Below, piece by piece: positions 10,754 to 43,938 of a stretch of DNA of 64,000 nt. This stretch comes from a virus. The stretch covers positions 32,001-96,000 of IMG/VR virus record IMGVR_UViG_3300007513_000013; one strand, given 5' to 3'. Below the pieces are notes generated by a model. That model was not told where the DNA came from and ran no database searches. It saw only the letters and a list, made by a program, of their open reading frames with translations. The first letter of the stretch is position 1, and each line of letters opens with the position of its first letter. Made by a program: the position numbers and the translations under genes.

Positions 10754-10813
10754 ATGGAACTAGCTAGATTAAAAAAAATAATCATAGAAGAACTACGTAA
10801 ACTTCTAGAATAA
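10754..10813 (+). CDS. Leader-only micro-ORF (19 aa)
   Basis: MELARLKKIIIEELRKLLE*, matches the leader motif of downstream proteins; no clear SD. Confidence 0.5.
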   Translation: MELARLKKIIIEELRKLLE

Positions 10814-10865
10814 TGATGAAAAGCTAAATTTTAGTACTATTTAATATATCAGGAGTGTTAACAGC

Positions 10866-12062
10866 ATGAAAATCACTAAATCAATATTACAAAGAATCAT
10901 ACAAGAAGAATTGAGCTTAACCTTGAAAGAAGCGTTTTGGCCGTTCGGCGTACGCCTAGGCGATATCGTAGAGCCTGCAGCGCAGAGTGTCGCGCGGTCA
11001 GACCCGGCATATACAGCAGACGCCGCGGCCAACATATATGATCGAAACATGCAACTGTTGCGAACAAATCTAGGAAAAGGCTACGGTCGACATCGACTGG
11101 GAATTGGACCAGAATTTGCCGCACCGCCGCTGCAGCAGGGAGACTTTATTGATTTAGACGGTGATGGCGAAAACGATTCTGCAACAATATTGCGCCTTGC
11201 CTTAAAACACCACTTAGAAGATGATGACGCGGCGATTAACACGGTACCGGCATACGAAGCCGATCCGTTAACAGCTGGCGGAGCGCTGCTAGGAGACTAT
11301 TTAGAGGAAACAAAACATATGAAAATCACAAAATCAATATTACAAAGAGTTATACAAGAAGAACTACAGGCAGTACTGCAGGAAGAAAATTTTACACCTG
11401 CGGACTTTGGCCAAGAGCAGATGACGCACGTGGCACCGGTTACGCAGGGTTCAAGTACGTTCGTTCCAGTAGGCATTGAAGACGAAAGTACCCGCACATC
11501 GTACCCTGTGAGCAAGACCCCGATGAGCCGTATTGACCGCCGCGAGCCTGGTAGTGTCGATCTTAAGCCCTCTGAAGAGGCGCGCAGAGACTTTGTCACC
11601 GGATCCACGATTGGAGTGGTCGGTGAAGCGCTTTCATTCGAGCAAATTGTACAAGAAGAATATGATATGCTAATGCAAGAAAAAGAAGAAAAGCTAGTGA
11701 CCCCAGCAAAAAGTCCGAAGAAGGGATTCACAAAAGACAAGAAAGTCACAGTAAAGGGCGAATTCGGTGGCAAGAAAGTAGTAACGTTACCAGGAAAAAA
11801 ATATGATCCCGGTAAATTTCGCGATGATGTTAAGATAGTCCACACGGGCCCAAAAAAGCCCAAGTATACGCCAAGAGTAACAGTAGGCGGCTTGGTCAAG
11901 CGCGACATAGAAGATGTATATGGAAAAGAAGATAAGAAAGAGAAGAAAAAAAGCAATCTAAAAGTAAGCAAGAAGCCGACAGATAAAGATACTGCAGCTC
12001 TGCGTAAACTAAAGAAACAGAAAGAGAAAAACATCGATGCTAAAGCGCGGAAGAAAAAATAA
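10866..12062 (+). CDS. Modular protein with repeated MKITKSILQR(I/V)IQEEL leader and Lys-rich C-terminus
   Basis: Leader at aa 1 and again from 11319 with near-identical DNA; AGGAG SD. Confidence 0.8.
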   Translation: MKITKSILQRIIQEELSLTLKEAFWPFGVRLGDIVEPAAQSVARSDPAYTADAAANIYDRNMQLLRTNLGKGYGRHRLGIGPEFAAPPLQQGDFIDLDGDGENDSATILRLALKHHLEDDDAAINTVPAYEADPLTAGGALLGDYLEETKHMKITKSILQRVIQEELQAVLQEENFTPADFGQEQMTHVAPVTQGSSTFVPVGIEDESTRTSYPVSKTPMSRIDRREPGSVDLKPSEEARRDFVTGSTIGVVGEALSFEQIVQEEYDMLMQEKEEKLVTPAKSPKKGFTKDKKVTVKGEFGGKKVVTLPGKKYDPGKFRDDVKIVHTGPKKPKYTPRVTVGGLVKRDIEDVYGKEDKKEKKKSNLKVSKKPTDKDTAALRKLKKQKEKNIDAKARKKK

Positions 12063-12166
12063 CCGCCAAAGAAAAAGAGAAAGTTCACGGCGCAGGAAAT
12101 GGACGATATGGACAAAGACTTATAGACACTATTAACAATTATTAAAAGGACAAGGGTTAACCACAC

Positions 12167-12718
12167 ATGAAACTAACTAAATCACGACTACAACAAATTA
12201 TTAAAGAAGAGTTACAGGCAGTTCTCCAAGAAACCGGCCCATACCAAGATCAACATCCGGGTAGTGGCTGTGATCCTTCCGTGCAGACATGTGTTGGCCC
12301 ATCGGTTGAATTGGGTAGTGAATTTGATTACGGCGGCAAAACGGCTGATGTGGTTAGATCCTACCAAGCCGGGCAATCACGTGACATGTCACCTCATTCT
12401 AACCAAACCCTTACCGGCGATTTCCAAACACTACTAGCGCATGCAAGTGAAGTTGGAGATGCTATGGACCCGGGTATGAGGCAGCATATGCATGATTTAG
12501 GCCAAGAATTACTGGCCCGGGGCTATCCAGCCAATTTAGTTAATGCGCAATATAAGACATTTGGAATTAACCAACAACAACCACAATATAAACTGCAATT
12601 AAGAAATTTAAACAAGGCACCGGGAGAGGAGGGCTTTGTGCCCATCGATGAGTCAACAATCAAAAAACAACAACTGCAGGATATTATTCAAGAAGAATTA
12701 CGAAATGTTTTGCTATGA
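12167..12718 (+). CDS. Leader-bearing hypothetical protein
   Basis: MKLTKSRLQQIIKEELQAVLQE at the N-terminus and QLQDIIQEELRNVLL at the C-terminus. Confidence 0.8.
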   Translation: MKLTKSRLQQIIKEELQAVLQETGPYQDQHPGSGCDPSVQTCVGPSVELGSEFDYGGKTADVVRSYQAGQSRDMSPHSNQTLTGDFQTLLAHASEVGDAMDPGMRQHMHDLGQELLARGYPANLVNAQYKTFGINQQQPQYKLQLRNLNKAPGEEGFVPIDESTIKKQQLQDIIQEELRNVLL

Positions 12719-13803
12719 AGTTAACCAAGGCCAAATTGCAACAAATTATCAACGAAGAATTACTAGTTTGTTTTAATGAAGAAAAAAAAATTTTGGTAAC
12801 TGAAAGCGAGGCGCGACAACCTCGTCGCGGAATGGAATACGATATCGAAAAGGCCCCTCCAATTGATTATGCTGCTGGGCGGGGTTCAACATACGAAGAT
12901 TCATATGGCGAAGAAAGGGCAGCTGCTCCTAAACAAGAGCTATCTTCTGAAGCTTGGGAAGATATTCTTCATATGGCCAACGATCCATTTTCTGTGTATC
13001 ATAACATGGCGCTTGACGCAATACGAGCTGAATTACCATCACCGTTCTTTACCCATCACATGCCGGGCATGCCGGGCCTATCGAAAAAAGAAGCTAATGA
13101 TTGGTTATATTCTACTGGCTTTAGCGGAATAGAAGGTCATGGTGAAGCTGCAGACTATGAAACAACACTTGTATCTCCCCACGTACCTGAGCAGTACGCG
13201 GGCGAAAAATCGCCCGGCCATATAGATCTATATAGGTGGGGCATTGCTCCTGGTATATATGAAGAAAACTTAAAGCGAGTCGTAAAAGAAGAATATAAAA
13301 AATTATTGGAAGAGCATGCGAAAGATTACGTTTGGGGCGTCAAGGCTCCCTACGGGCGCGCCGCCAATCAATATGAGCTAAAAACACTTCATGAATCAAA
13401 AGCTGGGATATTGCCGCCCGGGCAAGCATCACATACTCCGACCACAGCTGGTAACCCTGAAGAAGAAAAGAATTGGCCAACCGGAGGTAAATTATATCGT
13501 AAAGGGTGGCACAACAAGCCTTATGATATGTGGTACCGACACGGGCCAGCGCAAGCAAACGCCGTTCCAGTTTTTAGTCCTGCCAACCAATCTCGCGAAG
13601 GCAGCAGATGGAGCATCACACCACTTGGGTGGCCCAACGTTCAAGAAATGGACAAAATATATGGCGCTGGTGGTCTAGGCGAAGAAAGCCCTTTTCCCAT
13701 CGGCGGGCCTTATGAGCGAATATATATACCGGCCGGAATAAGGCAAGGACCTGAAATGGACGCATATATAAGAGAAAGTGCTCCATGGTTGTTTGTTGAT
13801 TAA
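12715..13803 (+). CDS. Leader-bearing modular P/G/Y/W-rich protein
   Basis: MKLTKAKLQQIINEEL; internal LKRVVKEEYKKLLEE. Confidence 0.8.
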   Translation: MKLTKAKLQQIINEELLVCFNEEKKILVTESEARQPRRGMEYDIEKAPPIDYAAGRGSTYEDSYGEERAAAPKQELSSEAWEDILHMANDPFSVYHNMALDAIRAELPSPFFTHHMPGMPGLSKKEANDWLYSTGFSGIEGHGEAADYETTLVSPHVPEQYAGEKSPGHIDLYRWGIAPGIYEENLKRVVKEEYKKLLEEHAKDYVWGVKAPYGRAANQYELKTLHESKAGILPPGQASHTPTTAGNPEEEKNWPTGGKLYRKGWHNKPYDMWYRHGPAQANAVPVFSPANQSREGSRWSITPLGWPNVQEMDKIYGAGGLGEESPFPIGGPYERIYIPAGIRQGPEMDAYIRESAPWLFVD

Positions 13804-17824: not shown

Positions 17825-18691
17825 ATGAAATTGACCAAAGAACAATTACAAAAACTAATACAAGAAGAATACCAAAATGCGCTAAGTGAGCAGGTGCATG
17901 AACCTACGAGTCCGAGGTATGACCTGATGAACGTGCCGCGGCAGTGGCAAAATGTAGCACCAGACTCTGAGGGTTTTGGTACGCAAGTTCATAAGAAGGG
18001 AGACGATGACAAAATATATGGAATGACGCGACCGGCCACCGAGGGCGAAATTGCTGATCGGTTCAACATTGGGGACGGATGGTGGGCCGATGCATTAAGA
18101 ACTGGTCGCGACACTGTTGCCAACTTTACTCCCGCTACGGATGAAATTTGGGGACACACACCATTGGAGCCCCGGACCGATGTTGAAGCGGTATATGGCA
18201 TGCCCCGAACTGAACAAGAACAAGAACATTATAAAGTACGACCTTTGGACCGGAGTGACGAAATGGAAGCCGGATATTTGACGGAATCCCTGCAACGAAT
18301 CATACAAGAAGAATACGAAACGATGGTAGGTCCAGAAATAGTAACAGATCCATTAACCGGCCAAGAGTATGAAGATCCTTACGGGGGAATTGCAGCGAAT
18401 TTAGCTACTTTTGGAGAAGCTTATCCGTTTGACTATGATCCCTATGCAGCGCCGGAGGGCTATCAAATTCCACATTTTGAACCTCCTCCTTCGTCAGGAT
18501 ATTATGGGGGCCCCCTGAATAACGCTTATATGTCGCCGGAGGAAAGTGAGGCCAATGTGATGCGCGCAGAACAGGAAAGGGCGGAGCAATTGCTACAAAT
18601 GAAATCTCTTTTAGATCCAGGGCCGGAAGGTCCAACAGAAGAGCAAGTTCGTAATGAGCTTATACGGCAAGAAATGGAAAGAAACCAGTAA
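17825..18691 (+). CDS. Leader-bearing modular acidic P/G/Y-rich protein
   Basis: MKLTKEQLQKLIQEEYQNALSE; internal LTESLQRIIQEEYETM. Confidence 0.8.
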   Translation: MKLTKEQLQKLIQEEYQNALSEQVHEPTSPRYDLMNVPRQWQNVAPDSEGFGTQVHKKGDDDKIYGMTRPATEGEIADRFNIGDGWWADALRTGRDTVANFTPATDEIWGHTPLEPRTDVEAVYGMPRTEQEQEHYKVRPLDRSDEMEAGYLTESLQRIIQEEYETMVGPEIVTDPLTGQEYEDPYGGIAANLATFGEAYPFDYDPYAAPEGYQIPHFEPPPSSGYYGGPLNNAYMSPEESEANVMRAEQERAEQLLQMKSLLDPGPEGPTEEQVRNELIRQEMERNQ

Positions 18692-19998: not shown

Positions 19999-21483
19999 AT
20001 GAAAGATTATTTTACAGGTTGGCGAAAATACCTTTTAGTTGAGCGCTATTCAATGCAGGCTGCGTATGAAGCCATTAAGCCCAACAACAAGAAAATGTAT
20101 AACTTATATAATAGGTACGTTAATCAGACTTGGCACTGGGACGTCGAAAACGGCTATATTGACCCAAGAGATGATCCAGAGCCGCCAGCAGATGAAGAAA
20201 AAATAAACAAAGCAGCTGCCAGTTACAGAAATTATATATTAGAAATAATACCAGAAGACATATGGGGCCCAAACGTAACAAGCCCAGAACAAAAAAAGAA
20301 AGAATCCGATAAAAATCAAGGCCTTGCAATGATGTGGGTTCGCAAATTAGCCCTTAAGGATCCAAATCTAGCCAGAGATATTATAGATGGCGAAATATCA
20401 TTTACAGGTCAAGGTCGACCTTATGCAAATATTATGCCCGACCTTGAAATCTACTTCCAAAATCTAGATTTAATGCCAAAAAGGAACTTAATAGAGCTTG
20501 AATCATTTGAAGAATTGCATCAAATGGTAGAAGCGGCAAAAGAAGAAATTCATGCTCGACAACAAGAAAGACAATACCTCGACGCAGAAGAGGGAACAGA
20601 AGTTTTAAGAGATGATGGGGAAATATATATTGCCGCTCTCCACAATAAAGGCGCTGCATGCGAATTGGGAAAAGGAACAGATTGGTGTACAGCTGCGCCC
20701 GGTTTAGATTATTTTTCAGACTATTATGAGCCAGATGATCCATTGTTCTTTTTTAAACGGAAACCGAAAACCGATCCGGATAAGCCTGAATTTATGCAGC
20801 GCGGCCACAAATCTCATCCGGGTGGTGAAGAAAAATATCAATTTCATTATGGCTCTGAACAATTTGTGAATGTGGAGGACTACCCGGTCAGTGATAAACT
20901 ATTCAAAGTACTTCACGGTTTTCTTATGCAAACAGAAGCACCACAAAAATATCCAGTTGTACAAACCTATCACTACAATCTCGTGGCCGATGATCCAAGC
21001 ACACCTCCAGAAGAGTTGAATGATATGGTTGAAGCGTTTGGGAATCTCTTGACCACCCATGATCATTACCACGCGGGTTTGACGTCTGAAGTCTTGTCAA
21101 AAGTTGCAAAAAACCCAAACACGCCAATTGAAGCACTTAGAAAACTTTCTAATTCGCGCGATAAATTTATTATTAGAAGCGTTCAAGTTAACGAACAGTT
21201 GGCGAATTTATTAGGCCCTGACCCAACAGAAGAGGGCATGAAATTAGCAAAAGAAATATTCCTCAACAATATAGAAGATCCACTAATATTTGACAGAGGT
21301 TTGAAACAATTCGGCCGCTGGATAAAGGCTGGAATAATGTCCAAAGAAGAAGCAAATAAAGCATTAAAGGATCATGTGGAGGCAGAAGAATTCCGCAAAA
21401 AGGCAAAAAAGGTTGCAAGGTCTGATGGGGGGTCTCAAGCAACATTAAGAGAGCGCAAGATCAGAATAAGGATAAAGAAATGA
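19999..21483 (+). CDS. Leader-bearing hypothetical protein with LRV/HEAT-like repeats
   Basis: MKDYFTGWRKYLLVE leader; ACELGKGTDWCTA; DPSTPPEEL and KNPNTPIEALRKL repeats. Confidence 0.8.
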   Translation: MKDYFTGWRKYLLVERYSMQAAYEAIKPNNKKMYNLYNRYVNQTWHWDVENGYIDPRDDPEPPADEEKINKAAASYRNYILEIIPEDIWGPNVTSPEQKKKESDKNQGLAMMWVRKLALKDPNLARDIIDGEISFTGQGRPYANIMPDLEIYFQNLDLMPKRNLIELESFEELHQMVEAAKEEIHARQQERQYLDAEEGTEVLRDDGEIYIAALHNKGAACELGKGTDWCTAAPGLDYFSDYYEPDDPLFFFKRKPKTDPDKPEFMQRGHKSHPGGEEKYQFHYGSEQFVNVEDYPVSDKLFKVLHGFLMQTEAPQKYPVVQTYHYNLVADDPSTPPEELNDMVEAFGNLLTTHDHYHAGLTSEVLSKVAKNPNTPIEALRKLSNSRDKFIIRSVQVNEQLANLLGPDPTEEGMKLAKEIFLNNIEDPLIFDRGLKQFGRWIKAGIMSKEEANKALKDHVEAEEFRKKAKKVARSDGGSQATLRERKIRIRIKK

Positions 21484-21524
21484 AACTCCTATTTGAAAAT
21501 TGGCGAAGGTCTCTAAATGAGTGA
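21480..21524 (+). CDS. Leader-only micro-ORF (14 aa)
   Basis: MKLLFENWRRSLNE*; DNA nearly identical to the start of 22074; ATGA and GTGA overlaps on both sides. Confidence 0.55.
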   Translation: MKLLFENWRRSLNE

Positions 21525-21871: not shown

Positions 21872-22077
21872 GTCATCTAAAAGACAATGACGAAACATAC
21901 ATTAGTCATTTTTTATTTGCAGGAAAGATTGGGTTAACTTTAATTTTTAGAGGAACTATATTTTTATTGCATGCACTGTTTCCGATAGCTGATGTACCAA
22001 AGCGCTGGAACTTGTTTGCTACAATATCAGAACTAAAAGAGTGGCACTCTTATACAATTACGAGAAAAAACAAATGA
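21868..22077 (+). CDS. Small protein, DUF6356-like
   Basis: MSHLKDNDETYISHFLFA...LLHALFP. Confidence 0.6.
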   Translation: MSHLKDNDETYISHFLFAGKIGLTLIFRGTIFLLHALFPIADVPKRWNLFATISELKEWHSYTITRKNK

Positions 22078-22592
22078 AACTATTATTTGAAAATTGGCGA
22101 AGGTACTTGAAAGAAGACAAGGATATAGATTCTGTTGTTAAAGTTGTTATTTTAAACGATGAAAATAAAATTTTAATTTTAAAACGAAGTGATGATGAAA
22201 TGTGGAATTTACCGGGTGGCCACATGAAAGAAAATGAAAGCGAAGAAGAAGGTGCAAAAAGAGAAGTCTCCGAAGAAACTAATTTAGCTGTTGAGAACTT
22301 GAAGCCAATTGGTGAAAAAGGCAAAATAAAGTACTATGAATCTAAGGAGTTTAGTGGTATAATAGAGTTAAATGAAGAACACACAGAATATGTGTGGGAG
22401 AACAGCGAGGAGATTGCAAACAAGGATATGCATCAAAAAGATAAAGACATTATAACTGAAAAGTATAATAAATTAGAAGAGTTTGATACAAATATCCCAG
22501 GCCAAACACTGGTTTATGGAGATCCCAATAATGCCGGTGGATTAAATACAAAGCCTAAAAAGTTTGCTGACGAAGAAAATGAAGGAAGTTAA
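22074..22592 (+). CDS. NUDIX hydrolase with N-terminal leader
   Basis: Nudix box PGGHMKENESEEEGAKREVSEET; leader MKLLFENWRRYLKE. Confidence 0.9.
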   Translation: MKLLFENWRRYLKEDKDIDSVVKVVILNDENKILILKRSDDEMWNLPGGHMKENESEEEGAKREVSEETNLAVENLKPIGEKGKIKYYESKEFSGIIELNEEHTEYVWENSEEIANKDMHQKDKDIITEKYNKLEEFDTNIPGQTLVYGDPNNAGGLNTKPKKFADEENEGS

Positions 22593-23178
22593 TAATTTAG
22601 TAAAAGAATGGAAGAAATTTTTATTAAAAGAAGATAAAACCTACCAAATATATTGTGATATGGATGGCGTTTTAGTAGATCTGGTTGGTGCCGTCTTAGA
22701 AAAGGCACAAAAAAATGCAAAAGATGAAAAGTTAAGAAAAGGTGTTGAAAAAATTCTAGCCATTGATTGGAGATGGACGGAAAAGAATCCAAAATACCAG
22801 AAATCTTTAGATTATATTGATAACATGGTAAGCAATAATGTAGAATTTTGGGCAACATTGCCCCCAACATCAGATAAAGACGTTTTGTGGAGTTATATTT
22901 CACAATATGATCCAATTATCCTTTCTCACCCATGGGATGGAGAGTCTGCAGAGGGGAAAAGAGTGTGGGTTTCGAATTTAATAGATCCTCAACCAATTGA
23001 TGTGATACTAACAGGCGACAAACACAGGCATGCTACAACAAAAGATGGTAAACCCAACATTTTAATTGATGATTTTGAAAAATATACTGTCCCATGGGAG
23101 CAAGCAGGGGGCATTGCCATACTACATACTTCTGCAGAGGACACAATAAGCAAACTTAAGGCTTTAATGGAGCAATAA
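22579..23178 (+). CDS. HAD-family 5'(3')-nucleotidase-like protein with N-terminal leader
   Basis: YCDMDGVLVD, GKRVW, ILIDD, WEQAGG; leader LVKEWKKFLLKE. Confidence 0.85.
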   Translation: MKEVNNLVKEWKKFLLKEDKTYQIYCDMDGVLVDLVGAVLEKAQKNAKDEKLRKGVEKILAIDWRWTEKNPKYQKSLDYIDNMVSNNVEFWATLPPTSDKDVLWSYISQYDPIILSHPWDGESAEGKRVWVSNLIDPQPIDVILTGDKHRHATTKDGKPNILIDDFEKYTVPWEQAGGIAILHTSAEDTISKLKALMEQ

Positions 23179-23925
23179 ATGAAGAAATTATTTGAAAATT
23201 GGCGAGGATTAATTAAAGAATCAAGGGGTCCAAAGGGTTTTCACTATAAAATTACACAAAGTTCCAAAACAATAGTGATTTTGCCTTTAAGTTTGCAAAC
23301 TAATGAACCAGAACCAGGAAAAGCAGAGGGAAATGCAGAGGTTGTTCTTGAAAAACGCACAGATATTCCCAATTGGCAGCTAGCATGGTCTAATGCACCT
23401 GCTGATTCAGAGGGTGTTGGTACGATAATGTACCTAATGGCACTAGAATTAGCCGGAAATGAAGGTTTATCCCCCGATGATTACGATCAAAGTGATGATG
23501 CACTACGTGTTTGGGCCAAATTTATGCCCGAAAACAATAGATTTGGTGTTTCTAAGGTCAAAAAAGAGCAATTTGCCCACGATAACGATGAAAATCCCTT
23601 CTTTTTTGTGTTCTACAAGCCGAATAGAGCCATTTTAAGCCGCTTTAAGGACCGTATATCGTATGAGGAGGGGTCGGAGGAAGAAAAGCCCGTCAAAGAG
23701 CCTGATATTGAGCCGTTCGACGTTGAAAATGACTGGGATTCTCTCTATGATGACGAAATATTGCAAGAAGAAGAGCCCTATCAGAAGAAAGTGAAGAAAA
23801 AACACCGCAGAATGAAGGTTAGACTGATTGGAAAGGGCAAAAACAAGCATAATGTGGGCAAAAAGATGAAAAAGCCGTCTTATAAGCGATCAAAAAGCGC
23901 TCCACCGGGCGCTGGTGGCTCTTAG
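23179..23925 (+). CDS. Leader-bearing hypothetical protein with basic tail (GNAT-like core possible)
   Basis: MKKLFENWRGLIKES; GVGTIMYLMALE; tail KRSKSAPPGAGGS. Confidence 0.75.
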   Translation: MKKLFENWRGLIKESRGPKGFHYKITQSSKTIVILPLSLQTNEPEPGKAEGNAEVVLEKRTDIPNWQLAWSNAPADSEGVGTIMYLMALELAGNEGLSPDDYDQSDDALRVWAKFMPENNRFGVSKVKKEQFAHDNDENPFFFVFYKPNRAILSRFKDRISYEEGSEEEKPVKEPDIEPFDVENDWDSLYDDEILQEEEPYQKKVKKKHRRMKVRLIGKGKNKHNVGKKMKKPSYKRSKSAPPGAGGS

Positions 23926-23955
23926 TGACTAGTTATTGATAGCGAGGGAGGTTTT

Positions 23956-24156: not shown

Positions 24157-24194
24157 AAACTATTTAAACTGTATACTTTTATTTTCCCGGAGTT

Positions 24195-34105: not shown

Positions 34106-35977
34106 ATGTCGTCCAAAAATGTATATACTCTTTTCAAAACATTGCGTGAGTACCTTAGTGAAGAAACGGTACAACTAGATATATCCTTACCAGAAGAAGA
34201 AAATGTCGGAGAAATTGAAGCCAAAGAAGCTCGATGGGTCGATAACTTATCTGATAGTGACCCGGGCGTATTCAATTTAAAGCTAGTAAAATCACAATTC
34301 AAGTCTCCCAAAAAAGATATGCTACAGGAACAGGGTTTACATGGATTTGACTTGCCATGGGCGTGGAAAGATAAAATATTAGCACTGGCTCCGCCTGCAG
34401 AACCTGTGGATTCAGTTCCGGGCGGCGTGATTCTTCCCGGACCTCAAAAAGCCAAAGAAAATCCACTCAAAGGCACAGATTTGGAGCACATCCAGCCAGA
34501 AGTGACACACCCAAAAGAACTGGCTGGTCAATATATAATAGAGCCTTTCGAAATCACTGCTCGTTCTAAAGAAGAGCAAGATAAAGCATATAAAGACTCA
34601 CTTAAACAAGTTTTTTTACCGCCGTCCGGACTGAAAGATTCTTCTGAGACGGGATATACAGCCGGGCGTAAATGGAGGCAATATGGAGAGTCGCGAATGG
34701 CGCGAATGTTGACTGATGTTGCACAAGAGTGGAAAAATAATCAAGAAGATTTAGTCGACGAAAAGGGAAGGTGGGGCCCCATTGAATATTGGGATGTGTC
34801 CAAAAAGGGAGGGGGCGAGTTTCCACCGCATGTCAGCCACCAATCAGGGAGAGATGTTGATATCGCAACGTTTCTCAAATCAAAGGCCCGCGGCTCTGCT
34901 AATATGGCCACCATTAGTACCGTTGATATGTATAGGATGTATAGGTTGGCTGAAATGTATATTAATTGGTCAGCGGATAATCCGGAGCCGCACTGGATTG
35001 ACAAAGAAACAGGACTAGCTAAAAATCCGATGGTGATATTCTGGAATCAAGAATTAATTGATGCAACAAGAAAATGGGCAGAAAAAAAACACAAAGTGAA
35101 TGGTGAGTGGGTATACAAAAACAATGTCAGCGAAATGACCAATGATGCAATGTTTGGCACGTGCACAAAACGGAATTCTCGGGAGGAGTGCGTAAAGCGC
35201 AAAAAAACATCTGATGTTAACAGGGGGCCGCGGACGTTTCGTCATGAACCTGGACATGCAAACCATTATCATATACGTACAGACCGAAGTTATGGAAAAA
35301 GAAACAAAATAAGATATGCAAACAAAGGTGAAAAACCATCTGTTTATATGCCTCCGCCTGAGCCGGAAGGGTTTGATCCAAAGGTGCGCATGAAAACTGC
35401 AGAGGATGAAGCAAGAGAATGGAAATGGAACGACAAGACACAACAGTGGGAAAATATGTTTGAGGGCGGCGCGGAGCAGGTTTATAACGTAGGCGGCGGA
35501 GGGCGGCCAGATCAAACAGTCCCAGTACCAGTGCCGACGCAAAAACTGTCGACGGTGCCCCCCAGTAATAAAATTAAAAAAGCGGCAAAAAAGAAGAGGC
35601 GGCACCGGGGCGTTTTTAAAAAGGCACCTAGTGGGCCCGAGACTATGAAAAACCTTATTAAGAGTGGGATATATGGGCCATTGGATGAGCAGATGGGGGC
35701 GCCCATGGATCCTATTCAGCAACAAATTCAAATGTCCGTAATGGCAGCACAAGAACAACTCGGTCCTTTGTTTGGTCAGTTGCAAGGAATGATTGTGCAA
35801 ATGCGCACTTTAAACACCCCAGCAGCCAATCAAGAGGTAAAAAAGCAAACTAATAGAATTGAACTAATTACTAATGACTTAAACGACGGAGATATTGATG
35901 TCATGGCCGCAATTGGTCAATTGGGTAACATTGCAAACGACATGGGCAAGAAAATGCAAAAGTTAACACAAGGGTAG
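34106..35977 (+). CDS. Modular protein with a MepA-like murein endopeptidase domain
   Basis: DVSKKGGGEFPPHVSHQSGRDVD and HANHYH zinc ligands of the LAS/MepA family. Confidence 0.85.
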   Translation: MSSKNVYTLFKTLREYLSEETVQLDISLPEEENVGEIEAKEARWVDNLSDSDPGVFNLKLVKSQFKSPKKDMLQEQGLHGFDLPWAWKDKILALAPPAEPVDSVPGGVILPGPQKAKENPLKGTDLEHIQPEVTHPKELAGQYIIEPFEITARSKEEQDKAYKDSLKQVFLPPSGLKDSSETGYTAGRKWRQYGESRMARMLTDVAQEWKNNQEDLVDEKGRWGPIEYWDVSKKGGGEFPPHVSHQSGRDVDIATFLKSKARGSANMATISTVDMYRMYRLAEMYINWSADNPEPHWIDKETGLAKNPMVIFWNQELIDATRKWAEKKHKVNGEWVYKNNVSEMTNDAMFGTCTKRNSREECVKRKKTSDVNRGPRTFRHEPGHANHYHIRTDRSYGKRNKIRYANKGEKPSVYMPPPEPEGFDPKVRMKTAEDEAREWKWNDKTQQWENMFEGGAEQVYNVGGGGRPDQTVPVPVPTQKLSTVPPSNKIKKAAKKKRRHRGVFKKAPSGPETMKNLIKSGIYGPLDEQMGAPMDPIQQQIQMSVMAAQEQLGPLFGQLQGMIVQMRTLNTPAANQEVKKQTNRIELITNDLNDGDIDVMAAIGQLGNIANDMGKKMQKLTQG

Positions 35978-35980: not shown

Positions 35981-38900
35981 ATGTTAGATATATTTAATGA
36001 ATCAGAACATCCTTTAGAGGGGCTAGAAGAATTAATTCAAGATCTTTTTTCATTTTCTAATGAAAGATTTGGATTCCAGAGACCTCCCAGTTTATTTCTT
36101 AGGTCTGATTCAGAAAACGCAAAAAACGCATTAGGTAGAACCGGTTCTTACGACCCGTCAAAAATGGAAATTATGATCTTTGTAGATAAGCGACACCCAA
36201 AAGATATTTTGCGCTCTATATCTCACGAACTAATCCACCATATGCAAAACTTAAGAGGTGATTTTGAACATGAATTCGACACATCAGAAGGATATGCCCA
36301 AAACGATCCACACCTAAGAAACATGGAAGAAGAGGCTTATTCTGCTGGAAATCTGTGTTTCAGAGATTGGGAAGACTCACGAAAACAACAATTAGCAGAA
36401 TCAATATGTTATAACAATATTATAGGAGGAGATGACATGTCAGAGGATAAAAGAATTCCACTGAAAGAGTGGAAAAATGCAGAACTTAATTCACAATTGA
36501 TGAAGAAGTTTGGTCTTGTAAATGAAGAATCAGGTGCAGGAGCCGAGCAACTTTATCACGAAGAAACCACTGCAGAAAATGTTAGTGGCGAAGAAACCCT
36601 AGAAGAAGACGAAGAACCAGAGAGTACCAACTTCTCTACAACCTTAAATGAGAGAAAAGAACTTGTTGTAGAGAAGAGGGCTGAATATTATCGTGCTCCA
36701 GGGGAAAATTATAGATTTGATCGGGATGAAGCCAATAAAGGCAAGGGTGGAGTGTATTCGCAAAATATTGCGCAAGTATATGATCGCTGTGTTGCAGAGG
36801 AAGATCAAGATTGTATAGACGATCTTGAAATGTCCGGAGATATATATCAATGGGCTGACCGGCAGGGTAGAGCAGCCAAAAAGGCAAAACAATATTGTAT
36901 ATGGGGCCATTGCTTTCCCCTGTCTTCTAAAAAGAAGCCAAAAGGGAAGCCTAAAAAGAAGCCAAAAGGGACATATCAAGAAGGTATTGCATCCTATCTC
37001 CCTGTCCACCCTGACAAGCTTAAAACACTTTTAAACGAAGGCTGGCTTGAAGATTGGTGGCGAAGTTCCACAGGGCAATCCGGACAGTCTATTCAAGTGG
37101 GGCCCGGCCAGAAACAATACCAGAAGGTTCTGAATCAAGGCGCTTGGGTTGATGTTCCGAAGGGTACGTATGAACTTCCGGATTATGTTACACCTGCAGA
37201 CGTGGCGCCTTATATGTATCATAAAGGTGGAAATCCGGCGGCAGAGGCCGCAGAGCATGCCAAACGACGGCTAAATCCATCATATGGAGCGGTGGATTTT
37301 CACGCCCCTCTAAAAGCCGGTCCTTCTGACGTCGAGATGATTCGTAGACATCAGAACCCTAGGCAAAACATGGCATATGCCAATCAGCAAATTGCTAAAT
37401 TACCGGGTGGAAAACAAAGGATGACTACTTTAACCCCCACTGAAGAATTTGCTATAGACATGGGATTAAGCGCGCTCGATATATACGGTGGTTTTGGGGC
37501 GCTAAAATGGGCTAGAGCAATGAAAGCAGCTAAAGCAGCAGAAGAAGCGGCAAGGGTATCCAGAATTGTGAAATCTGGGGAGAAAGTGGCGCCAAAATTT
37601 GGTGTACCTCCGGAATTACCACCACCTCGAAAACCTGCTGAGTTGCCGCACACAGTTATTGATCCAGATGATGTATATTACATACTCGATGACGCCGACA
37701 TTATATCTTCAACGAAATCAAAGCCTGTGCAGCCTCCGCCAGTGCCAAAACCCGTGCGACCACCGCCGGTACCGGTCGAAAAGGCGGCGATGAGTCTAGA
37801 TGACCTTCCGGTGGTGACTGCGGCAATGAGAGGCGAAGAAGCGGCGCAACTTAGTAAGTGGCAAAGAATTAAAGATTGGACTAAAGATTTGCCCGTTAAA
37901 ATAAAAGAGGCATCCGGAAAGGCATGGGAGGCTACAAAAACAGGAGCAAGAAAGACAGGTGAATATTTAGATCCCAGGACTACGAAATTTCCTACCACAT
38001 TCAATCAACTTCTTGGGCCGGGTAAACAAAAGTTCTTCAGTAATAGAACTGCATTGAACCTTTTTGCTACTGCAGCTGGAACCGGTGCTAGCGCAGAAGC
38101 TCTATATTATTGGTTTGGTGGCGATGGTCCGTTCATTGAACATGAAGAGGGTAAGAATTATCCATCAAACGCTATCTTACAAAAAGATCCAAAATCAGGT
38201 GAGGTGGTTTCTTATTACCTAACCCGAGAACAGTTTATGGGCGAACCCAGATCGTTTTTTGATCGTACACCAGATCCCACAAAGTTCGTTAAAGTGTGGA
38301 CTACAAATGGCAGAGAAGCCAATGATTTAGTTGAAGGTCTTTACGCAGAACAGCACAGAAAAGAGTTTTTTGCTAAGGTTGGTAATTCTGAAGCTTCTAT
38401 GAAAGATTACACAGAACTCCGAGAGAAACAACTAGCAGGATTTAAACAATTATATGATGACGGTCGCGTAAATAAAGCGGTGCTTGATGCAAAACTAAGA
38501 CAAATAATGGCAGAATACAAATTAGTAACTAAAACGAAGGAGAAGAGTAAAGTTGATTGGCAACTGACAACACCCGAGCAAAAAGAACTTGTCCGGACTT
38601 ATTTAAGATCATTAATGTTAGAAGATTATGTCCGAGAGTTTGGGCCGGGTGCAGTTCCAGGGATTGGAGAAATATACACGTTCACAGACTATAAAGGTCA
38701 AAGAGTAAAGATAGAAAGCTCTGAGGATGATGGCGATAGTTACGGCATAAAAATAATTGGAGTTGAAGATCCTGATGGTGACGGCCCCTTAACAAAAAAA
38801 GATGCGGAAGAGAAAATAAAAAGAAACTGGGTGCTTGGACATATTGGGGGTCGCGAAGATCAGTGGTCTCAAGGAATGCATTTCCCAATTGCACAGACCG

Positions 38901-39202
38901 GAAAGCCAAAACACCCTATCCTATACACCCCTCAATCTGAACGTGAGTGGCGAAAGGGATATTTTGCTAACTTATTTGGCGATGATGAACCTGCCGGCTT
39001 AAGACCTCCTCGCTCTCCAGCTCTTATGGACAGGAAAACCAGAATGACGGATGAGGAAGAGGTACGCAAAGAAGATGAGTATGTATACGAAAACAAGGCC
39101 CAGGCACTCTTTAAAAAACCCTACAATGAACTAGGCGAAGACGATAAACAAAAAGTTCGCGATGCTGTCGAGCTAGACGAACTTGAGTGGGTTAACGAAT
39201 AA
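35981..39202 (+). CDS. Giant modular protein (1073 aa) with an N-terminal zincin-like domain
   Basis: RHPKDILRSISHELIHHMQ...EEEAY; internal SD+ATG at 36437; Pro-rich linker; central hydrophobic helix. Confidence 0.8.
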   Translation: MLDIFNESEHPLEGLEELIQDLFSFSNERFGFQRPPSLFLRSDSENAKNALGRTGSYDPSKMEIMIFVDKRHPKDILRSISHELIHHMQNLRGDFEHEFDTSEGYAQNDPHLRNMEEEAYSAGNLCFRDWEDSRKQQLAESICYNNIIGGDDMSEDKRIPLKEWKNAELNSQLMKKFGLVNEESGAGAEQLYHEETTAENVSGEETLEEDEEPESTNFSTTLNERKELVVEKRAEYYRAPGENYRFDRDEANKGKGGVYSQNIAQVYDRCVAEEDQDCIDDLEMSGDIYQWADRQGRAAKKAKQYCIWGHCFPLSSKKKPKGKPKKKPKGTYQEGIASYLPVHPDKLKTLLNEGWLEDWWRSSTGQSGQSIQVGPGQKQYQKVLNQGAWVDVPKGTYELPDYVTPADVAPYMYHKGGNPAAEAAEHAKRRLNPSYGAVDFHAPLKAGPSDVEMIRRHQNPRQNMAYANQQIAKLPGGKQRMTTLTPTEEFAIDMGLSALDIYGGFGALKWARAMKAAKAAEEAARVSRIVKSGEKVAPKFGVPPELPPPRKPAELPHTVIDPDDVYYILDDADIISSTKSKPVQPPPVPKPVRPPPVPVEKAAMSLDDLPVVTAAMRGEEAAQLSKWQRIKDWTKDLPVKIKEASGKAWEATKTGARKTGEYLDPRTTKFPTTFNQLLGPGKQKFFSNRTALNLFATAAGTGASAEALYYWFGGDGPFIEHEEGKNYPSNAILQKDPKSGEVVSYYLTREQFMGEPRSFFDRTPDPTKFVKVWTTNGREANDLVEGLYAEQHRKEFFAKVGNSEASMKDYTELREKQLAGFKQLYDDGRVNKAVLDAKLRQIMAEYKLVTKTKEKSKVDWQLTTPEQKELVRTYLRSLMLEDYVREFGPGAVPGIGEIYTFTDYKGQRVKIESSEDDGDSYGIKIIGVEDPDGDGPLTKKDAEEKIKRNWVLGHIGGREDQWSQGMHFPIAQTGKPKHPILYTPQSEREWRKGYFANLFGDDEPAGLRPPRSPALMDRKTRMTDEEEVRKEDEYVYENKAQALFKKPYNELGEDDKQKVRDAVELDELEWVNE

Positions 39203-42200
39203 TGGGTGGTGCTGCAGGACACATGGCACATCCTTTTGATTTGCCCGAAGTAAATACTGGAAATGATTTAATCAATTTCTTTCAAACAGCGGTAGATCAT
39301 TTACAAACAAATGCCGGTAGTGTTAAAATTGATGGAGTTAACGTAAGCTTTAAATTAATTGACGGACCTCAAGGCAAAGAATTTGCAGTTGATCGTGGAA
39401 GTACAAAACCAATTGACATTGAAGGGATAACAATAAGCAGAGTTAACGAAAGATTTCCAGAAGGTCATGGAATGCGGCCAGCTATTACAACTCTATTGAC
39501 AATCCTCAATGAGGCTCTCCCAAATATAAAACGACAATTGCAGCAATTGGGAATGTGGTATGACCCCACGAAATTCTTAAACACAGAATATGTCTTAGGA
39601 CAAACAAACGTAACTGTATATGATAAAAACTTTTTAGCTATTCACGGCTTAAATCAGTTTTATGAGAAAACCAATCAAAGAACCGGCGTTTCTAGACCGG
39701 GAACTAAAAGACCCTTAAACAATAAAGCTCCGAGTACAGAAGTAGAATATAGCGACGATCTAATGGAGTCTTTAGTTGCAGAAATTGGTAAAGTAGCTGG
39801 TAGGTATGGATTTGAAGTTTATGGATCCGTGCCAACAGAATCCATGAAGCCTGTTAATTTTTCTAGTACCTTAAGTACCCCTTTTACTGTTAATTATGGA
39901 TATGAAGAAAATGGTGAGGTGTTCTCAGACACAAAAACCCTTCAAGAATGGTTGGCAGAGGCCAATAATCCCCGAGGGGCAACTGTCAATTTAGCCGATG
40001 GTAGAAAACAAGGGGCCATGAGCAAATTAGTCTACACAGAAATTTTAAATGGCACTTTAATAACTGAATTGTTGCAAATTGGTGAAGATTTTTGGCAGAA
40101 CATGCAGGACGGGGGAAATATAGAAGGAACGGAAGTAGAATTAGCTGTAGATGGCGCAATATTCTACCATGCAACCAGATTGTTGGGAAATGATGTTTTA
40201 GAGACACTCACAAGCCCCATGGGAGACGTTCTAAGCCACGAAGGAGTGGTTATTAGGGGGTTATCCTCTGTGCCGGTTAAAATCACCGGAGAATTCATCG
40301 TACAAGGCCTACAAACGGCCTTTAGAGAGCAGAAAGAACTTTATGAGCAGAATATACCGTTTGCAGGCGAAAAGTCCCATATAGCCTTCATTCCGGGCGG
40401 ATTTAAGCCTCCGCACAAAGGGCATCTAGAAATGGTTAAATATTACTACAATAAAGTGGGCCCAAATGGGACAGTTGTTGTTTTAATGGGCGGTGGTGGA
40501 AAACAGCCGAGAACAATCAATGGAAAACCCATAACTTTGCAAGATTCTATGAATATATGGGAAACATATTTAAGAAATGATCCTGGAATTGATTGGCCCT
40601 CTGATAGAGTGGAGTTTCAGAGTGTTGAAGGTGTTGGTCCAATTGCGCCTATTATAGATTATATAAAAGAGAAAGCAGATCCAGAAACTGAAGTTATTCA
40701 TTTGGGCGCTGGTGCGAAAGATGCTAATAGATGGAAAATGATGCTGGATAATTCCAAAAACAACCCGAGAGGAGTTGAATTACATATTGATCCTGCTCCA
40801 AATATGGTAGATTCAGAAGGAAATCCATTGAGCGCAACTGTTATGCGAAGATCTGTTGAAGAAAAAGATCTAGACACCTTTAAGAGATTTATTCCCGACA
40901 CCAGCCTTCATACAGCTGAAGATTTGTTTGTTATGCTGAGCGGTGCTTTATTAACAGAAGGAAAGGAGGATGACCCACTTCCTGTGGGTATTTTTCTGCG
41001 GTTAATTGAAGAAGAGGTAGATAAAGAAATATTAAATGAAAATTTATGGGACACTTTAGATAATTGGAGGCGCAGATACGGCCGTAAAATCCTTAATCCA
41101 ATCGAAACAACGGCAGGAGTGTTGGGCGATCTTATCGGTAAACAAGAGGCCGGAAAAAAAGCAGAACACCTTACAGATAAATTAGCAGACACTATTACAT
41201 CTCCATTTGATCCTTTAATTAATCCAGTGGTTGATTATCTATCTGGTCGGAGAGACATTGATCCGCCAAAAGGGCCGGGCGGAAGTACACCAGTTATAGT
41301 ACCTCCATATGACCCTAGGACAGAAAAAATAAATCAACTTTTAAAACAAAGAGAAGACTGGAGTAAAAAACTGCATTTAAAATATTTACAAGACAGAGAA
41401 GAAGCTTATTATCGAAATCCGGAAAGATGGGAAGGGAAATTACCCGAAGAAGGATATTGGGGACCTCATGAGAATAGCCCGACAAGTAAAACGACTTACG
41501 ATGCGTGGTTAAAATCTGGCGCGTACAGAAAACATTTTCCAAACTTAACACGAATTAGCACTGATGACCCAAGATTAAAATGGTATTGGAAAGATATGGA
41601 TCCCTCCAAATTAGAACAAGTATATGGTACTCGCGATGGACGTTGGCACGACCCACTAAAAGAGTCAAACACACTTTCACCAGATATGTTTCTAGAATTA
41701 ATTGAAGAAGCTATAGCCAGCACAGATTTATTTGGTGGCAGGAAAGACGATGCCAATATGTATCCTCAATGGAATGCTCAAGCTGCTGATGATGCAATAT
41801 ATGATAATGACGATACAATACCGGTAACTGAAGCTAGTGGAATGGCAGCCGGTGATGTTTCTGGTGGCGGTGTAGGAAATAGGCCTCCGGGAGCTTGTGA
41901 TGATGAATACTTAATTCGTGAAGAAGACAGTGAAACACCTGAAGTTAAAAAACCTGCTGAAGTTAAAAAACCTGCTGAAGTTAAAAAACCTGCTGAAGTT
42001 AAAAAACCTGCTGAAGTTAAAAAACCTGCTGAAGTGGCTAGCTGGCAGGATGACCCGAGCTATGAATCATCTCTCCCTCCTCAAAACAAGCAAGAAGAAA
42101 CCCACGAAGACAAAATAAAGGGTATGAAGTTTTATAATAACTTAAAAGACGATACATTTAAAGAGGCTTTTAACAAGGCCTATAAAACATATGGCTGGAA

Positions 42201-43161
42201 AGGGGCTTATGTCTGGAAGAAGACATATGAAAACTTCATTAAGAAGGGAGACGGTCCGGATGATGCAGCATACTTTGCCAGCGATGCAGTTACTTCTTTG
42301 AAGTGGCCCGGGAAACAAAAAATCACCAAGCAGAGGGCGCGCCCGTACCACCCGCTAGAGCCCGGCTCATACACAAAGATTTATACCGGTAAAAACCGGC
42401 CATCAGATGAAGAGATAAAAAGAGATCCAGTGAAGCCGCCGCCAAAAGGTTCACAAAAATACTCCTATACAGATCAGGGCAAACAAATAGCTAATAATGT
42501 AAGAAACGACCTGATCAAAGCATATACACAGCCATGGTCCCCGTTTGCGCAGCAAGGAATCAGAAAACATGGAAAGAAAAAGTATTTTAACGAGATCCTT
42601 CCGAAAATTACAGAAAAACTACGTGGCATCAGCTTTAATATTGAAAAAGGTAAAAAGACCGTTAGTGATCATGCCGCGGCATATTACGCGCCCGGGACGA
42701 ATAGTGTCACTCTCCCCGGACGCTTTGATGCAAGCACAGAAGAACTTGAAACACTGCTGGTACATGAAATAGGGCACTCTTTGGCGCCAGGATTTCTTAC
42801 TAAACTTGGCCTAGGTGTTATTGATCCGGGTGATAACAAGCAAGATTTATTAGCGTTGATAGACAAGGAAAAAGTGCACAAAGGGTTCAGGCCCGGGCAG
42901 AAGTCGATTATGCACCGGGTTGAGTATGGCAAAGATCCGCATGGTGCGAATCCCTCGGAGATACAAACCAACTTAGCTCATTTAAAATATTACCTTATGA
43001 AAAAGGGCCACATGGGCAATGATGGGAAAGTAACCGGAAAAGTTATTGACAAAATTCGCCAAGGAAAAATAAAAGTACCCGGTAATAATTTTGTAAAGAA
43101 TATAAATTCCAAAATGGATTCGCGCGAACTAGCTCAGCGTATGAATAATATTTGGAATTAA
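39202..43161 (+). CDS. Giant modular protein (1319 aa): ligase-like domain, HIGH nucleotidyltransferase domain, C-terminal zincin module
   Basis: KIDG...EGVVIR...VKITG; PGGFKPPHKGH...LSATVMR; VHEIGH...EIQTN. Confidence 0.8.
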   Translation: MGGAAGHMAHPFDLPEVNTGNDLINFFQTAVDHLQTNAGSVKIDGVNVSFKLIDGPQGKEFAVDRGSTKPIDIEGITISRVNERFPEGHGMRPAITTLLTILNEALPNIKRQLQQLGMWYDPTKFLNTEYVLGQTNVTVYDKNFLAIHGLNQFYEKTNQRTGVSRPGTKRPLNNKAPSTEVEYSDDLMESLVAEIGKVAGRYGFEVYGSVPTESMKPVNFSSTLSTPFTVNYGYEENGEVFSDTKTLQEWLAEANNPRGATVNLADGRKQGAMSKLVYTEILNGTLITELLQIGEDFWQNMQDGGNIEGTEVELAVDGAIFYHATRLLGNDVLETLTSPMGDVLSHEGVVIRGLSSVPVKITGEFIVQGLQTAFREQKELYEQNIPFAGEKSHIAFIPGGFKPPHKGHLEMVKYYYNKVGPNGTVVVLMGGGGKQPRTINGKPITLQDSMNIWETYLRNDPGIDWPSDRVEFQSVEGVGPIAPIIDYIKEKADPETEVIHLGAGAKDANRWKMMLDNSKNNPRGVELHIDPAPNMVDSEGNPLSATVMRRSVEEKDLDTFKRFIPDTSLHTAEDLFVMLSGALLTEGKEDDPLPVGIFLRLIEEEVDKEILNENLWDTLDNWRRRYGRKILNPIETTAGVLGDLIGKQEAGKKAEHLTDKLADTITSPFDPLINPVVDYLSGRRDIDPPKGPGGSTPVIVPPYDPRTEKINQLLKQREDWSKKLHLKYLQDREEAYYRNPERWEGKLPEEGYWGPHENSPTSKTTYDAWLKSGAYRKHFPNLTRISTDDPRLKWYWKDMDPSKLEQVYGTRDGRWHDPLKESNTLSPDMFLELIEEAIASTDLFGGRKDDANMYPQWNAQAADDAIYDNDDTIPVTEASGMAAGDVSGGGVGNRPPGACDDEYLIREEDSETPEVKKPAEVKKPAEVKKPAEVKKPAEVKKPAEVASWQDDPSYESSLPPQNKQEETHEDKIKGMKFYNNLKDDTFKEAFNKAYKTYGWKGAYVWKKTYENFIKKGDGPDDAAYFASDAVTSLKWPGKQKITKQRARPYHPLEPGSYTKIYTGKNRPSDEEIKRDPVKPPPKGSQKYSYTDQGKQIANNVRNDLIKAYTQPWSPFAQQGIRKHGKKKYFNEILPKITEKLRGISFNIEKGKKTVSDHAAAYYAPGTNSVTLPGRFDASTEELETLLVHEIGHSLAPGFLTKLGLGVIDPGDNKQDLLALIDKEKVHKGFRPGQKSIMHRVEYGKDPHGANPSEIQTNLAHLKYYLMKKGHMGNDGKVTGKVIDKIRQGKIKVPGNNFVKNINSKMDSRELAQRMNNIWN
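41941..42030 (+). repeat. Perfect 18 bp tandem repeat x5 encoding EVKKPA
   Basis: GAAGTTAAAAAACCTGCT x5, in frame within 39202..43161. Confidence 0.95.
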
Positions 43162-43212
43162 GTTAAATGAGAAATTTATACACTATTTACTGTGTAAAGT
43201 GGAGCAAAAATA

Positions 43213-43938
43213 ATGCAAACTGAAAGAGAAGATTTTATAAATGAAATTTTGGAAGAAAGGAAGCTTAGAGAGGTGGTTCGAGCCGGTATTAAAACCATAC
43301 TGGAGAGGAAAAAGAAAGTCGTTGACGAGTCGATGCAGCTTAAATCAATCATACAGCATATAATTAAAGAAGCAAAAGCTAAAAACATTGCTGTACATGA
43401 TTCCACCGGGATGAATAGATTAGAAGATCTATTTAGCAACACTTCTTTTTTAGATACTCTGGAAAAAGCTTATATGTCGTTAACTTCGGCTCCAGAACAA
43501 AGAAAGTCATTTCGTGCACATCTTTTGAATGCAGTAGAGGCGTTACTGCAAACAGATGATCTAAACAGATCTGCAGATGCAGAGGAGGCTGGTAGTAGTA
43601 GCCTTATGACTAGACCGGTGAAACCTATAGCAGAAGATATTGATGTTGATATCGATGATGACTTTAGTGATGATGTTGAAGATGTTAACAAATCTGATGA
43701 AGAAAAGGAAGAAGAAGACTTTAGTATTCCCGGGATGGATGAAACAGGCAGAAATATCGCCTTACAAGCTTTTAATGGTCTTAAAGATTTAATTAAAAAC
43801 GCTCTAAAGCCAATTGTTAATTCTGAAGATAAAGAATTGTTTATGACATATTTAATTAAAAATTTAAATTTATATTTAGATACGTATGAAGAATCGATTA
43901 CTGGTGACTTTAAAAATCAAGAACCAATGATGCCATAA
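43213..43938 (+). CDS. Acidic hypothetical protein
   Basis: 241 aa; HDSTGMNRLEDL, DETGRNIA; GGAG SD. Confidence 0.8.
   Translation: MQTEREDFINEILEERKLREVVRAGIKTILERKKKVVDESMQLKSIIQHIIKEAKAKNIAVHDSTGMNRLEDLFSNTSFLDTLEKAYMSLTSAPEQRKSFRAHLLNAVEALLQTDDLNRSADAEEAGSSSLMTRPVKPIAEDIDVDIDDDFSDDVEDVNKSDEEKEEEDFSIPGMDETGRNIALQAFNGLKDLIKNALKPIVNSEDKELFMTYLIKNLNLYLDTYEESITGDFKNQEPMMP

Follow-up and report, generated by a model that had tools for sequence, protein, structure and literature searches.

Portable peptide tags ending in aliphatic-x-Glu on predicted late proteins of an uncultured T4-like phage, with a probable role in capsid loading and cleavage

We describe here two families of short peptide tags carried by otherwise unrelated proteins in a 64,000-nucleotide stretch of viral DNA (the window), which comprises bases 32001-96000 of the 118,471-bp linear IMG/VR virus record IMGVR_UViG_3300007513_000013. 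The record is judged to be approximately 65% complete, and the genes of the window lie almost all on the plus strand. The tags, which we refer to as type A (22 residues) and type B (14 residues), together start at least 14 proteins of the record, and an earlier proposal, made in a first-pass annotation from the sequence of the window, that a short N-terminal peptide is common to otherwise unrelated proteins is borne out for both types. Genes for a gp55-like late sigma factor and for gp25- and gp6-like baseplate wedge proteins lie on the record beyond the window, and because of these genes we regard the phage as T4-like; by its gene content it is a distant, uncultured, marine T4-like myovirus. 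It has numerous relatives in IMG/VR, and as judged by the gp6-like protein the nearest cultured relatives are Microcystis phage Mel-JY01 (34%) and Flavobacterium phage immuto (31%), with the uncultured 484-kb phage LR756508 at 29%.

Type A tags follow the consensus MK[LI]TKxxLxQIIxEE[LY]xxhLxE, with a heptad-like hydrophobic stripe in the helix at positions 8, 11/12, 15/16 and 19/20. N-terminal leaders of this type are present at 10866, 12167, 12715 and 17825, at 11319 with its own Met, and at 24195 in a variant form, all six having been listed in the first-pass annotation, and three further type A leaders lie upstream of the window. The 12-residue core hh-x-[EK]-E-h-x-x-h-h-x-E occurs nine times in the phage proteins as compared with 0.07 in 500 shuffles and not at all in reversed sequences, and a hidden Markov model (HMM) restricted to the type A core has eight matches of at least 8 bits in the phage proteins and none in 20 shuffled or reversed proteomes. 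Because the core count is so far above that of the shuffles, we accept as valid the copies at 11646, 13279 and 27596 (internal) and at 26082 (C-terminal); the internal copy at 18290 is likewise real. All of these had been proposed earlier, as had one at 40993, which scores loosely, yet coincides with the end of its homologue in the related genome G001. Among the leader codons there are 120 same-codon pairs of 244 where 105 are expected, the synonymous variation being about that predicted by codon usage, and it is therefore the peptide that is conserved and not the DNA. We rejected a DNA-level repeat on the strength of this codon variation.

Several ORFs (open reading frames) contain more than one type A copy. 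The ORF at 10866..12062 carries, besides its N-terminal leader, a complete second one that starts with its own Met (11319-11384) and a third core copy at 11646-11681, and the promoter-like motif ACTATTTA, discussed below, is located both at 10836 and at 11296, the latter 23 nt before the internal Met. With its own Met and a ACTATTTA 23 nt upstream (window 11296-11384), the downstream 247 residues of this ORF could therefore be produced as a protein of their own as well. The ORF at 12167..12718 has at its C-terminal end a truncated type A copy (12668-12715) reading ...IIQEELRNVLL and then stop, and a fused form of this ORF exists (P0002). The 644-residue protein encoded at 24195 ends in a type A core (26082-26117, ...IVQKEYQKLLLE) followed only by IKK and the stop codon, and the homologue P0051 terminates alike.

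Type B tags, with the consensus MKxLhENWRxFLxE, are clear at 19999, 22074 and 23179, where they score 25-30 bits against a maximum of 6.8 in shuffles, and two further type B leaders are situated upstream of the window. Other type B copies claimed in the first-pass annotation fared less well, as those at 34106 and 36437 do not score and the leader HMM gives the N-terminus at 22579 2.8 bits, which is noise; we note that an NT5C-annotated homologue in phage immuto likewise has an N-terminal extension. The stop codon of the free-standing leader ORF at 21480-21524, which ends LNE, overlaps the GTG start of an SNase-like ORF (21521-21871) within the sequence GTGA, and the SNase-like frame is offset by one base from that of the leader. 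The ORF that precedes the nuclease gene in several relatives finishes, out of frame and immediately ahead of the nuclease start, with the B-like sequence ...LVKSWRNFIS, and no fused leader-SNase form was found among the SNase homologues in relatives. A scar left by fusion, or a site of recoding, may account for the overlap at 21480-21871.

Table 1. Tagged genes, long ORFs and candidate promoter sites of the window (window coordinates)
Feature	Position	Strand	Evidence or remark
ACTATTTA sites	10836..10843, 10641, 11296, 13840, 16239, 16461, 17752	+	candidate late promoter
ACTATTTA sites, continued	21799, 24159, 34080, 43182, 44370, 47172, 47910	+	candidate late promoter
Type A-like helix-only ORF, 19 codons, MELARLKKIIIEELRKLLE then stop	10754..10813	+	11.1 bits
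398-aa late protein (predicted), basic Lys-rich tail	10866..12062	+	type A leader 10866-10931
183-aa protein, type A leader 12167-12232	12167..12718	+	leader match
362-aa protein, type A leader 12715-12780, internal core copy 13279-13314	12715..13803	+	core pattern
288-aa acidic protein, type A leader 17825-17890, internal copy 18290-18343	17825..18691	+	core HMM; ACTATTTA at 17752
494-aa protein, type B leader 19999-20043 (MKDYFTGWRKYLLVE)	19999..21483	+	24.7 bits
Free-standing 14-codon type B leader ORF, MKLLFENWRRSLNE then stop	21480..21524	+	copy absent from the first-pass list
NUDIX hydrolase, type B leader 22074-22115	22074..22592	+	Pfam NUDIX 61.4 bits, cut-off 21.1
HAD/NT5C-like 5'-nucleotidase, weak B-like N-terminal extension MKEVNNLVKEWKKFLLKE	22579..23178	+	Pfam NT5C (PF06941) 22.7 bits, cut-off 24.8
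248-aa protein, type B leader 23179-23220, strongly basic tail	23179..23925	+	type B leader HMM
644-aa protein, variant type A leader 24195-24263 (...IILEEYYKLISE)	24195..26129	+	ACTATTTA at 24159
1662-aa multi-module protein	26126..31114	+	N-terminal peptide ending MNE; HExxH at residue 249; type A core joint
623-aa protein, sub-threshold MepA/M74-like region	34106..35977	+	claimed type B copy unsupported
1073-aa protein, claimed copy at 36437 unsupported	35981..39202	+	N-terminal HExxH domain, residues 1-180
1319-aa protein, loose type A-like joint 40993-41040	39202..43161	+	ligase-like and HxGH nucleotidyltransferase-like region, residues 1-590

The tags are widespread outside this record. 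When residues 1-40 of one tagged protein were used as the query in a word-based protein search, near-identical leaders were recovered on unrelated metagenomic proteins, some of which hold a second, internal copy. IMG/VR was scanned for type A leaders with a degenerate DNA pattern over the first 15 codons only, leaving the ending unbiased, and this yielded 113 leaders in 80 IMG/VR loci, most of them on proteins of 70-250 residues and many in tandem arrays. Among the 103 leaders long enough to be scored, an aliphatic-x-Glu (h-x-E) ending is present at position 21 or 22 in 57 (55%), as compared with 0-4% at each position from 23 to 45. Glu is favored over Asp about four- to five-fold at positions 21-22, the ratio being about 1 to 1 downstream, and after position 22 the composition shifts to one rich in Gly, Asp, Ser and Pro. 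Type B leaders are present in the same loci; of 22 that were selected by residues 1-9 alone, 16 have an h-x-E whose Glu is at position 14, and in 21 it falls within positions 14-17. The mature parts that follow the tags are mostly acidic (64% net negative), and basic DNA-binding mature parts of the T4 internal protein type were rejected on this ground; a Tat or other secretion signal was rejected because inspection reveals no hydrophobic core after the tag.

A tblastn search with the leaders against 50,697 phage records matched one leader to one huge uncultured phage only, tblastn with the leader consensus and with one whole tagged protein against the same records returned nothing, and a literature search for the leader strings produced no relevant paper and no description of these leaders. 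Flavobacterium phage immuto carries MKKSQLRQIIKEAL-type leaders; no virion proteome was found for this phage or for Mel-JY01. Two other shared N-termini were observed. A third motif, LL(N/T)E(S/T)x(I/V)(K/R)RFM(K/D)LA..., sits on further late proteins (L001:18460-19137 and L001:19149-19808 in record coordinates, 163773 in G001, and 111631 in immuto), and a fourth leader type, FDLKKFLVENKLT...LLKE, is present in immuto on three genes just upstream of the terminase gene.

Comparison of homologues shows each tag to be a portable module with the Glu as its last residue. Eleven NUDIX homologues have a type B tag and six are without it, and the six untagged proteins begin M-x-KDIDSV, which corresponds to the point after the tag in YLKE/DKDIDSV (E14; here and below a slash marks the boundary after the Glu); other NUDIX homologues have linkers of 20-50 residues inserted at the same point. 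In an AlphaFold2 model of the ORF at 22074 the tag is a low-confidence helix with a predicted local distance difference test score (pLDDT) of about 52, and the NUDIX fold starts at residue 17, with pLDDT of about 97 over residues 17-130. The 644-residue and 1662-residue proteins, encoded by neighboring ORFs, share 57% identity over 67 residues, and this paralogy begins at SE/SKGKLPS in one and NE/SKSKLPS in the other, past two quite different leaders.

The long ORFs contain the motif at module joints. In the 1662-residue protein the internal type A core at 27596-27631 (residues 491-502) is such a joint, and an exhaustive phmmer search with residues 1-700 identified 12 homologues with alignment ends clustered at 501-503. 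Two homologues (P0051 and P0046) stop at the motif, with the end of P0051 resembling that of the 644-residue protein, another (P0050) begins with the motif and runs on into the downstream module, and two more (P0048 and P0049) have a full type A leader at the joint; h-x-E is kept at this position in seven of eight homologues. Of the 1319-residue protein, G001 encodes only the first half; its product of 637 residues breaks off in a truncated version of the 40993 joint, and past the joint the ORF in the window continues into further modules including a C-terminal HExxH region. No shorter homologues of the middle part of the 1662-residue protein were found, and searches by peptide patterns found no close IMG/VR relatives of the 1662- and 1319-residue proteins. 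Motif positions are thus correlated with domain boundaries at the NUDIX fold, at the start of the 644/1662-residue paralogy, and at the 1662- and 1319-residue joints, and the earlier suggestion that the tags are portable agrees with the NUDIX, 644/1662-residue and 1319-residue comparisons, all of which break at the Glu or motif. The proposal that the long ORFs are polyproteins holds in part: two joints, in the 1662- and 1319-residue ORFs, are well supported, and the HExxH domains could do the cutting instead.

The first-pass annotation also held that recognizable domains begin shortly after the motif, and of the domains that it named only NUDIX is firmly identified. The NUDIX fold (PF00293) begins 3-7 residues after the tag, and the HAD/NT5C region begins about five residues after the B-like extension at 22579, with a Pfam score just below the cut-off. 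The MepA (M74) match, in contrast, is sub-threshold and lies ~170 residues downstream of the claimed tag at 34106, and the beta-lactamase or penicillin-binding protein fold proposed within the 1662-residue ORF has no sequence match in Pfam or PDB; PDB sequence searches with the ligase/nucleotidyltransferase and 'beta-lactamase' regions gave best E values of about 0.5. The ORF at 34106 is the first gene of a block that is led by a candidate late promoter and includes the next two ORFs, and the HExxH domain of the 1073-residue protein is conserved in G001 and immuto.

The window has 14 copies of the candidate promoter ACTATTTA, each of them on the plus strand, where 3.5 are expected, and none of 100 shuffles reaches 14; in the whole record there are 18 plus-strand sites and one on the minus strand. 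It is positioned 23-45 nt upstream of the gp25-like and gp6-like baseplate genes and, at the same range of distances, upstream of 10866, the internal start at 11319, 13884, 24195, 34106 and 43213, and it lies 73 nt upstream of 17825. In G001 it precedes the scaffold, sheath, tube and gp6 genes as well as two type A genes. We infer that ACTATTTA is the late promoter of this lineage and a candidate for use by the gp55-like sigma factor, and it precedes baseplate genes and tagged genes alike; the tagged genes, including the giant ORF block, are presumably late genes. The T4 late promoter TATAAATA was rejected as the late signal, as it is not enriched (8 found as compared with 5.2 expected). Further ACTATTTA sites are located at record positions 112646 and 113066.

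The gp21-like protease that the first-pass annotation suggested looking for elsewhere in the genome is not on the record but is present in its relatives. An S77 (gp21-type) protease is encoded by 13 of 13 relatives or leader-bearing genomes, comprising all five long relatives found by their baseplate genes, all five long contigs found by the leader pattern, and immuto, Mel-JY01 and LR756508. In the major capsid proteins of G001 and a second relative, G006, the sequence LLRE aligns with the T4 gp23 cleavage site FLTE/A. With G001 head proteins as tblastn queries, a terL-portal-protease module is found in 37 of the 80 leader loci, and within these IMG/VR contigs, which were found by their leaders, 12 of the 21 leader genes in protease-holding loci lie no more than 1 kb from the protease gene, on either side, with seven more directly upstream of terL. 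The gene after the protease in G001 has a type B tag (17.5 bits) and the next conserved gene in G006 has a type A core (10 bits); PHROGs provides no names for the head-module neighbors p278, p180, p236 and p145. Profiles of both tag types have no match in T4, cyanophage Syn1 or Mel-JY01, all three of which have an S77 protease, and the tags are lineage-specific, as is the capsid-targeting sequence (CTS) of T4. Mimicry by the tags of the scaffold protein, of the major capsid protein N-terminus, or of T4 gp67 or gp68 was rejected, as similarity is at noise level.

T4 provides an established precedent for how such peptides could act. Its internal proteins are docked into the scaffolding core by propeptides of 10-19 residues, and gp21 cuts after the Glu of L/I-x-E, with Alt trimmed at both ends and core proteins cut at many sites (PMC9026906, PMC3012670); the residues that serve targeting and those that serve processing have been described, as has the way in which Alt is processed at its C-terminus (PMC9026906). 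The T4 CTS as read from NC_000866 is MKTYQEFIAE/A. By analogy, we propose that the A and B tags probably load proteins into the capsid and mark cut sites, as lineage-specific equivalents of the T4 CTS. As a short amphipathic helix, the tag would dock a late protein into the prohead scaffolding core, the S77 prohead protease would remove it by cutting after aliphatic-x-Glu, and the mature protein would be freed inside the head and delivered with the DNA. Because it would be a self-contained module, the tag could have spread to many unrelated proteins, and where genes fused it would be kept at the joint, such that the long ORFs would be chains of modules with protease sites between them. That the internal joints are indeed cut, and the giant ORFs are head-processed chains, we hold to be possible but somewhat short of probable. 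The broadest form of the proposal, in which a tag code of at least two interchangeable leader families loads nearly any protein into the capsid and joint copies make head-processed polyproteins in a widespread marine T4-like clade, we offer tentatively; the cargo could then range from small peptides, NUDIX hydrolases and nucleotidases to ligase/nucleotidyltransferase enzymes, zinc peptidases and cell-wall hydrolases.

The resemblance to the T4 CTS lies in short N-terminal peptides on unrelated, fast-evolving small proteins that end in aliphatic-x-Glu (PMC9026906, PMC3012670), in a lineage with a gp21-type protease and with the genes in variable arrays. There are also clear differences, as the A and B profiles find nothing in T4 and the tags have no detectable similarity to MKTYQEFIAE, their length of 14 or 22 residues exceeds that of the T4 sequence, they fall into no fewer than two coexisting families, and each genome has far more genes that carry them; enzymes and proteins of 600-1700 residues are found among the payloads, and copies are also present at joints and C-terminal ends. 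For the latter the T4 proteins Alt, gp67, gp68 and gp22 offer a precedent, in that they are cut at both ends or at multiple internal L/I-x-E sites (PMC9026906), and in the leader-found contigs the leader genes hold the positions of gp67, gp68 and gp22 around the protease gene, although homology to these proteins is not detected (best score 3.9 bits, which is noise). In the giant phages phiKZ and SPN3US, head and inner-body or ejection propeptides are cut after S/A/G-x-E by a diverged gp21 homologue, and these phages have numerous head-internal proteins, including large ones, that are cleaved behind the Glu of a short motif present redundantly (PMC9026906), much as we envisage here. The system described here differs in that P3 is aliphatic and T4-like (L/I/V/M) and not small, and in having T4-type baseplate and late sigma genes as opposed to phiKZ-type ones.

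Several observations weigh against a role in loading and cleavage. The 65%-complete record has no Peptidase_S77, terminase, portal or capsid gene, and because S77 proteases occur without the tags in T4, Syn1 and Mel-JY01, the link between tag and protease is permissive and not specific. Some 45% of type A leaders are without h-x-E at position 21 or 22, and since an aliphatic residue and a Glu at this spacing are also expected of the end of an amphipathic helix, the pattern does not prove that cutting takes place there. A simple N-terminal signal would also not predict the copies found at C-terminal ends or those that break off ahead of the Glu (...NVLL stop, ...GILL stop). The mature parts are mostly acidic and those of T4 internal proteins basic, and the system here is known from sequence alone. 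We also know of no precedent for a NUDIX hydrolase or a 5'-nucleotidase as packaged cargo.

A different explanation of the long proteins is that they are polyvalent proteins, packaged or injected whole and processed, if at all, by their own zincin-like HExxH domains, with the helix serving as a linker or docking element and not as a head-protease substrate. The enrichment of HE..H, with eight in the phage proteins as compared with 1.4 in shuffles, speaks for this explanation, and the eight include one in each of four large ORFs in a row, all probably late, at 26126, 34106, 35981 and 39202 (window positions 26870, 35243, 36224 and 42763). A weak Pfam MPTase-PolyVal match (E = 0.18, below the cut-off) is located at the C-terminal end of the 39202 ORF, and feature-based comparisons give leads, and leads only, to LPD23 and Peptidase_M78-like clusters; taken with the HE..H enrichment, these hints indicate that the giant ORFs may be polyvalent proteins. 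The portions of Iyer et al. 2017 drawn on here (PMC5512222) report such proteins among late genes and in association with virions, name DD-peptidase and nucleotidyltransferase domains among their modules, and propose release by HExxH peptidase-like domains for giant proteins that string enzymatic modules together; in those same portions no recurring leader or joint peptide with a head-protease motif is described. However, no HMM match reaches its curated cut-off, and no significant domain match places the ORFs studied here in the polyvalent class. By our reading the HE..H of the 34106 ORF likely belongs to a LAS/M74-type region (the M74 match itself being sub-threshold) and not to a zincin. 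The tags also start many small single-domain proteins without a peptidase, and the joint terminates in the exact motif that S77 is known to cut. We consider this explanation unlikely.

It is also conceivable that the helix is a general assembly or oligomerization element, such as a coiled-coil handle, which brings late proteins into a complex other than the prohead core and is never removed. Its heptad-like stripe, the placement of copies at N-terminal, internal and C-terminal positions, and the type A leaders without h-x-E would all be accommodated, but the model leaves unexplained the sharp preference for Glu over Asp at one or two particular positions, the start of untagged homologues right after the Glu, and the clustering of leader genes at the prohead protease gene, and we find it quite improbable. 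An evolutionary by-product, in which a conserved cassette start (promoter, ribosome-binding site and first codons) acts as a recombination joint and the tags have no targeting role, would account for the tandem arrays of tagged genes with unrelated payloads, for fused and split forms that break at the tag, and for the ACTATTTA at 11296 directly preceding the internal copy at 11319. Yet synonymous codons vary as codon usage predicts, which indicates selection on the peptide and not on the DNA, and internal copies without promoter or Met still keep the peptide core and h-x-E; a by-product of this kind is very unlikely. We favor capsid loading and cleavage, as outlined above, as the role of the tags.

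If this is correct, a sequence motif alone would reveal which proteins abundant uncultured ocean phages inject ahead of their genes, and these would be likely first-strike anti-defense and host-takeover factors. The principle of the T4 internal proteins would then scale to dozens of proteins, to enzymes and to polyproteins, differing from T4 in the tags themselves, in far more and larger payloads, and in the presence of tags at module joints. Like the T4 CTS, the tags could also be put to use as natural elements that bring foreign proteins into phage heads.

Some other genes of the record and its relatives deserve mention. A tubulin/FtsZ-like gene lies within the window at 44876-45967, where the Pfam Tubulin score of 32 bits is just below the cut-off of 33, and similar-looking genes with the same GxGxGGG N-terminal motif (recognized by eye and unaligned) adjoin leader clusters and head modules in G001 (94545) and G006 (7243). 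A gene for a GroEL-like chaperonin of 523 residues, judged from its N-terminal sequence only, is located at L002:2571-4142 (record 22571-24142). Between the giant ORFs, at 31190-33334, is a gene for a lipoprotein in which a VWA-like region accompanies four MopE-type Cys-rich metal-binding repeats; it is 47% identical to a gene in one of the leader loci (L119) and hints at a host among Myxococcota-like bacteria.

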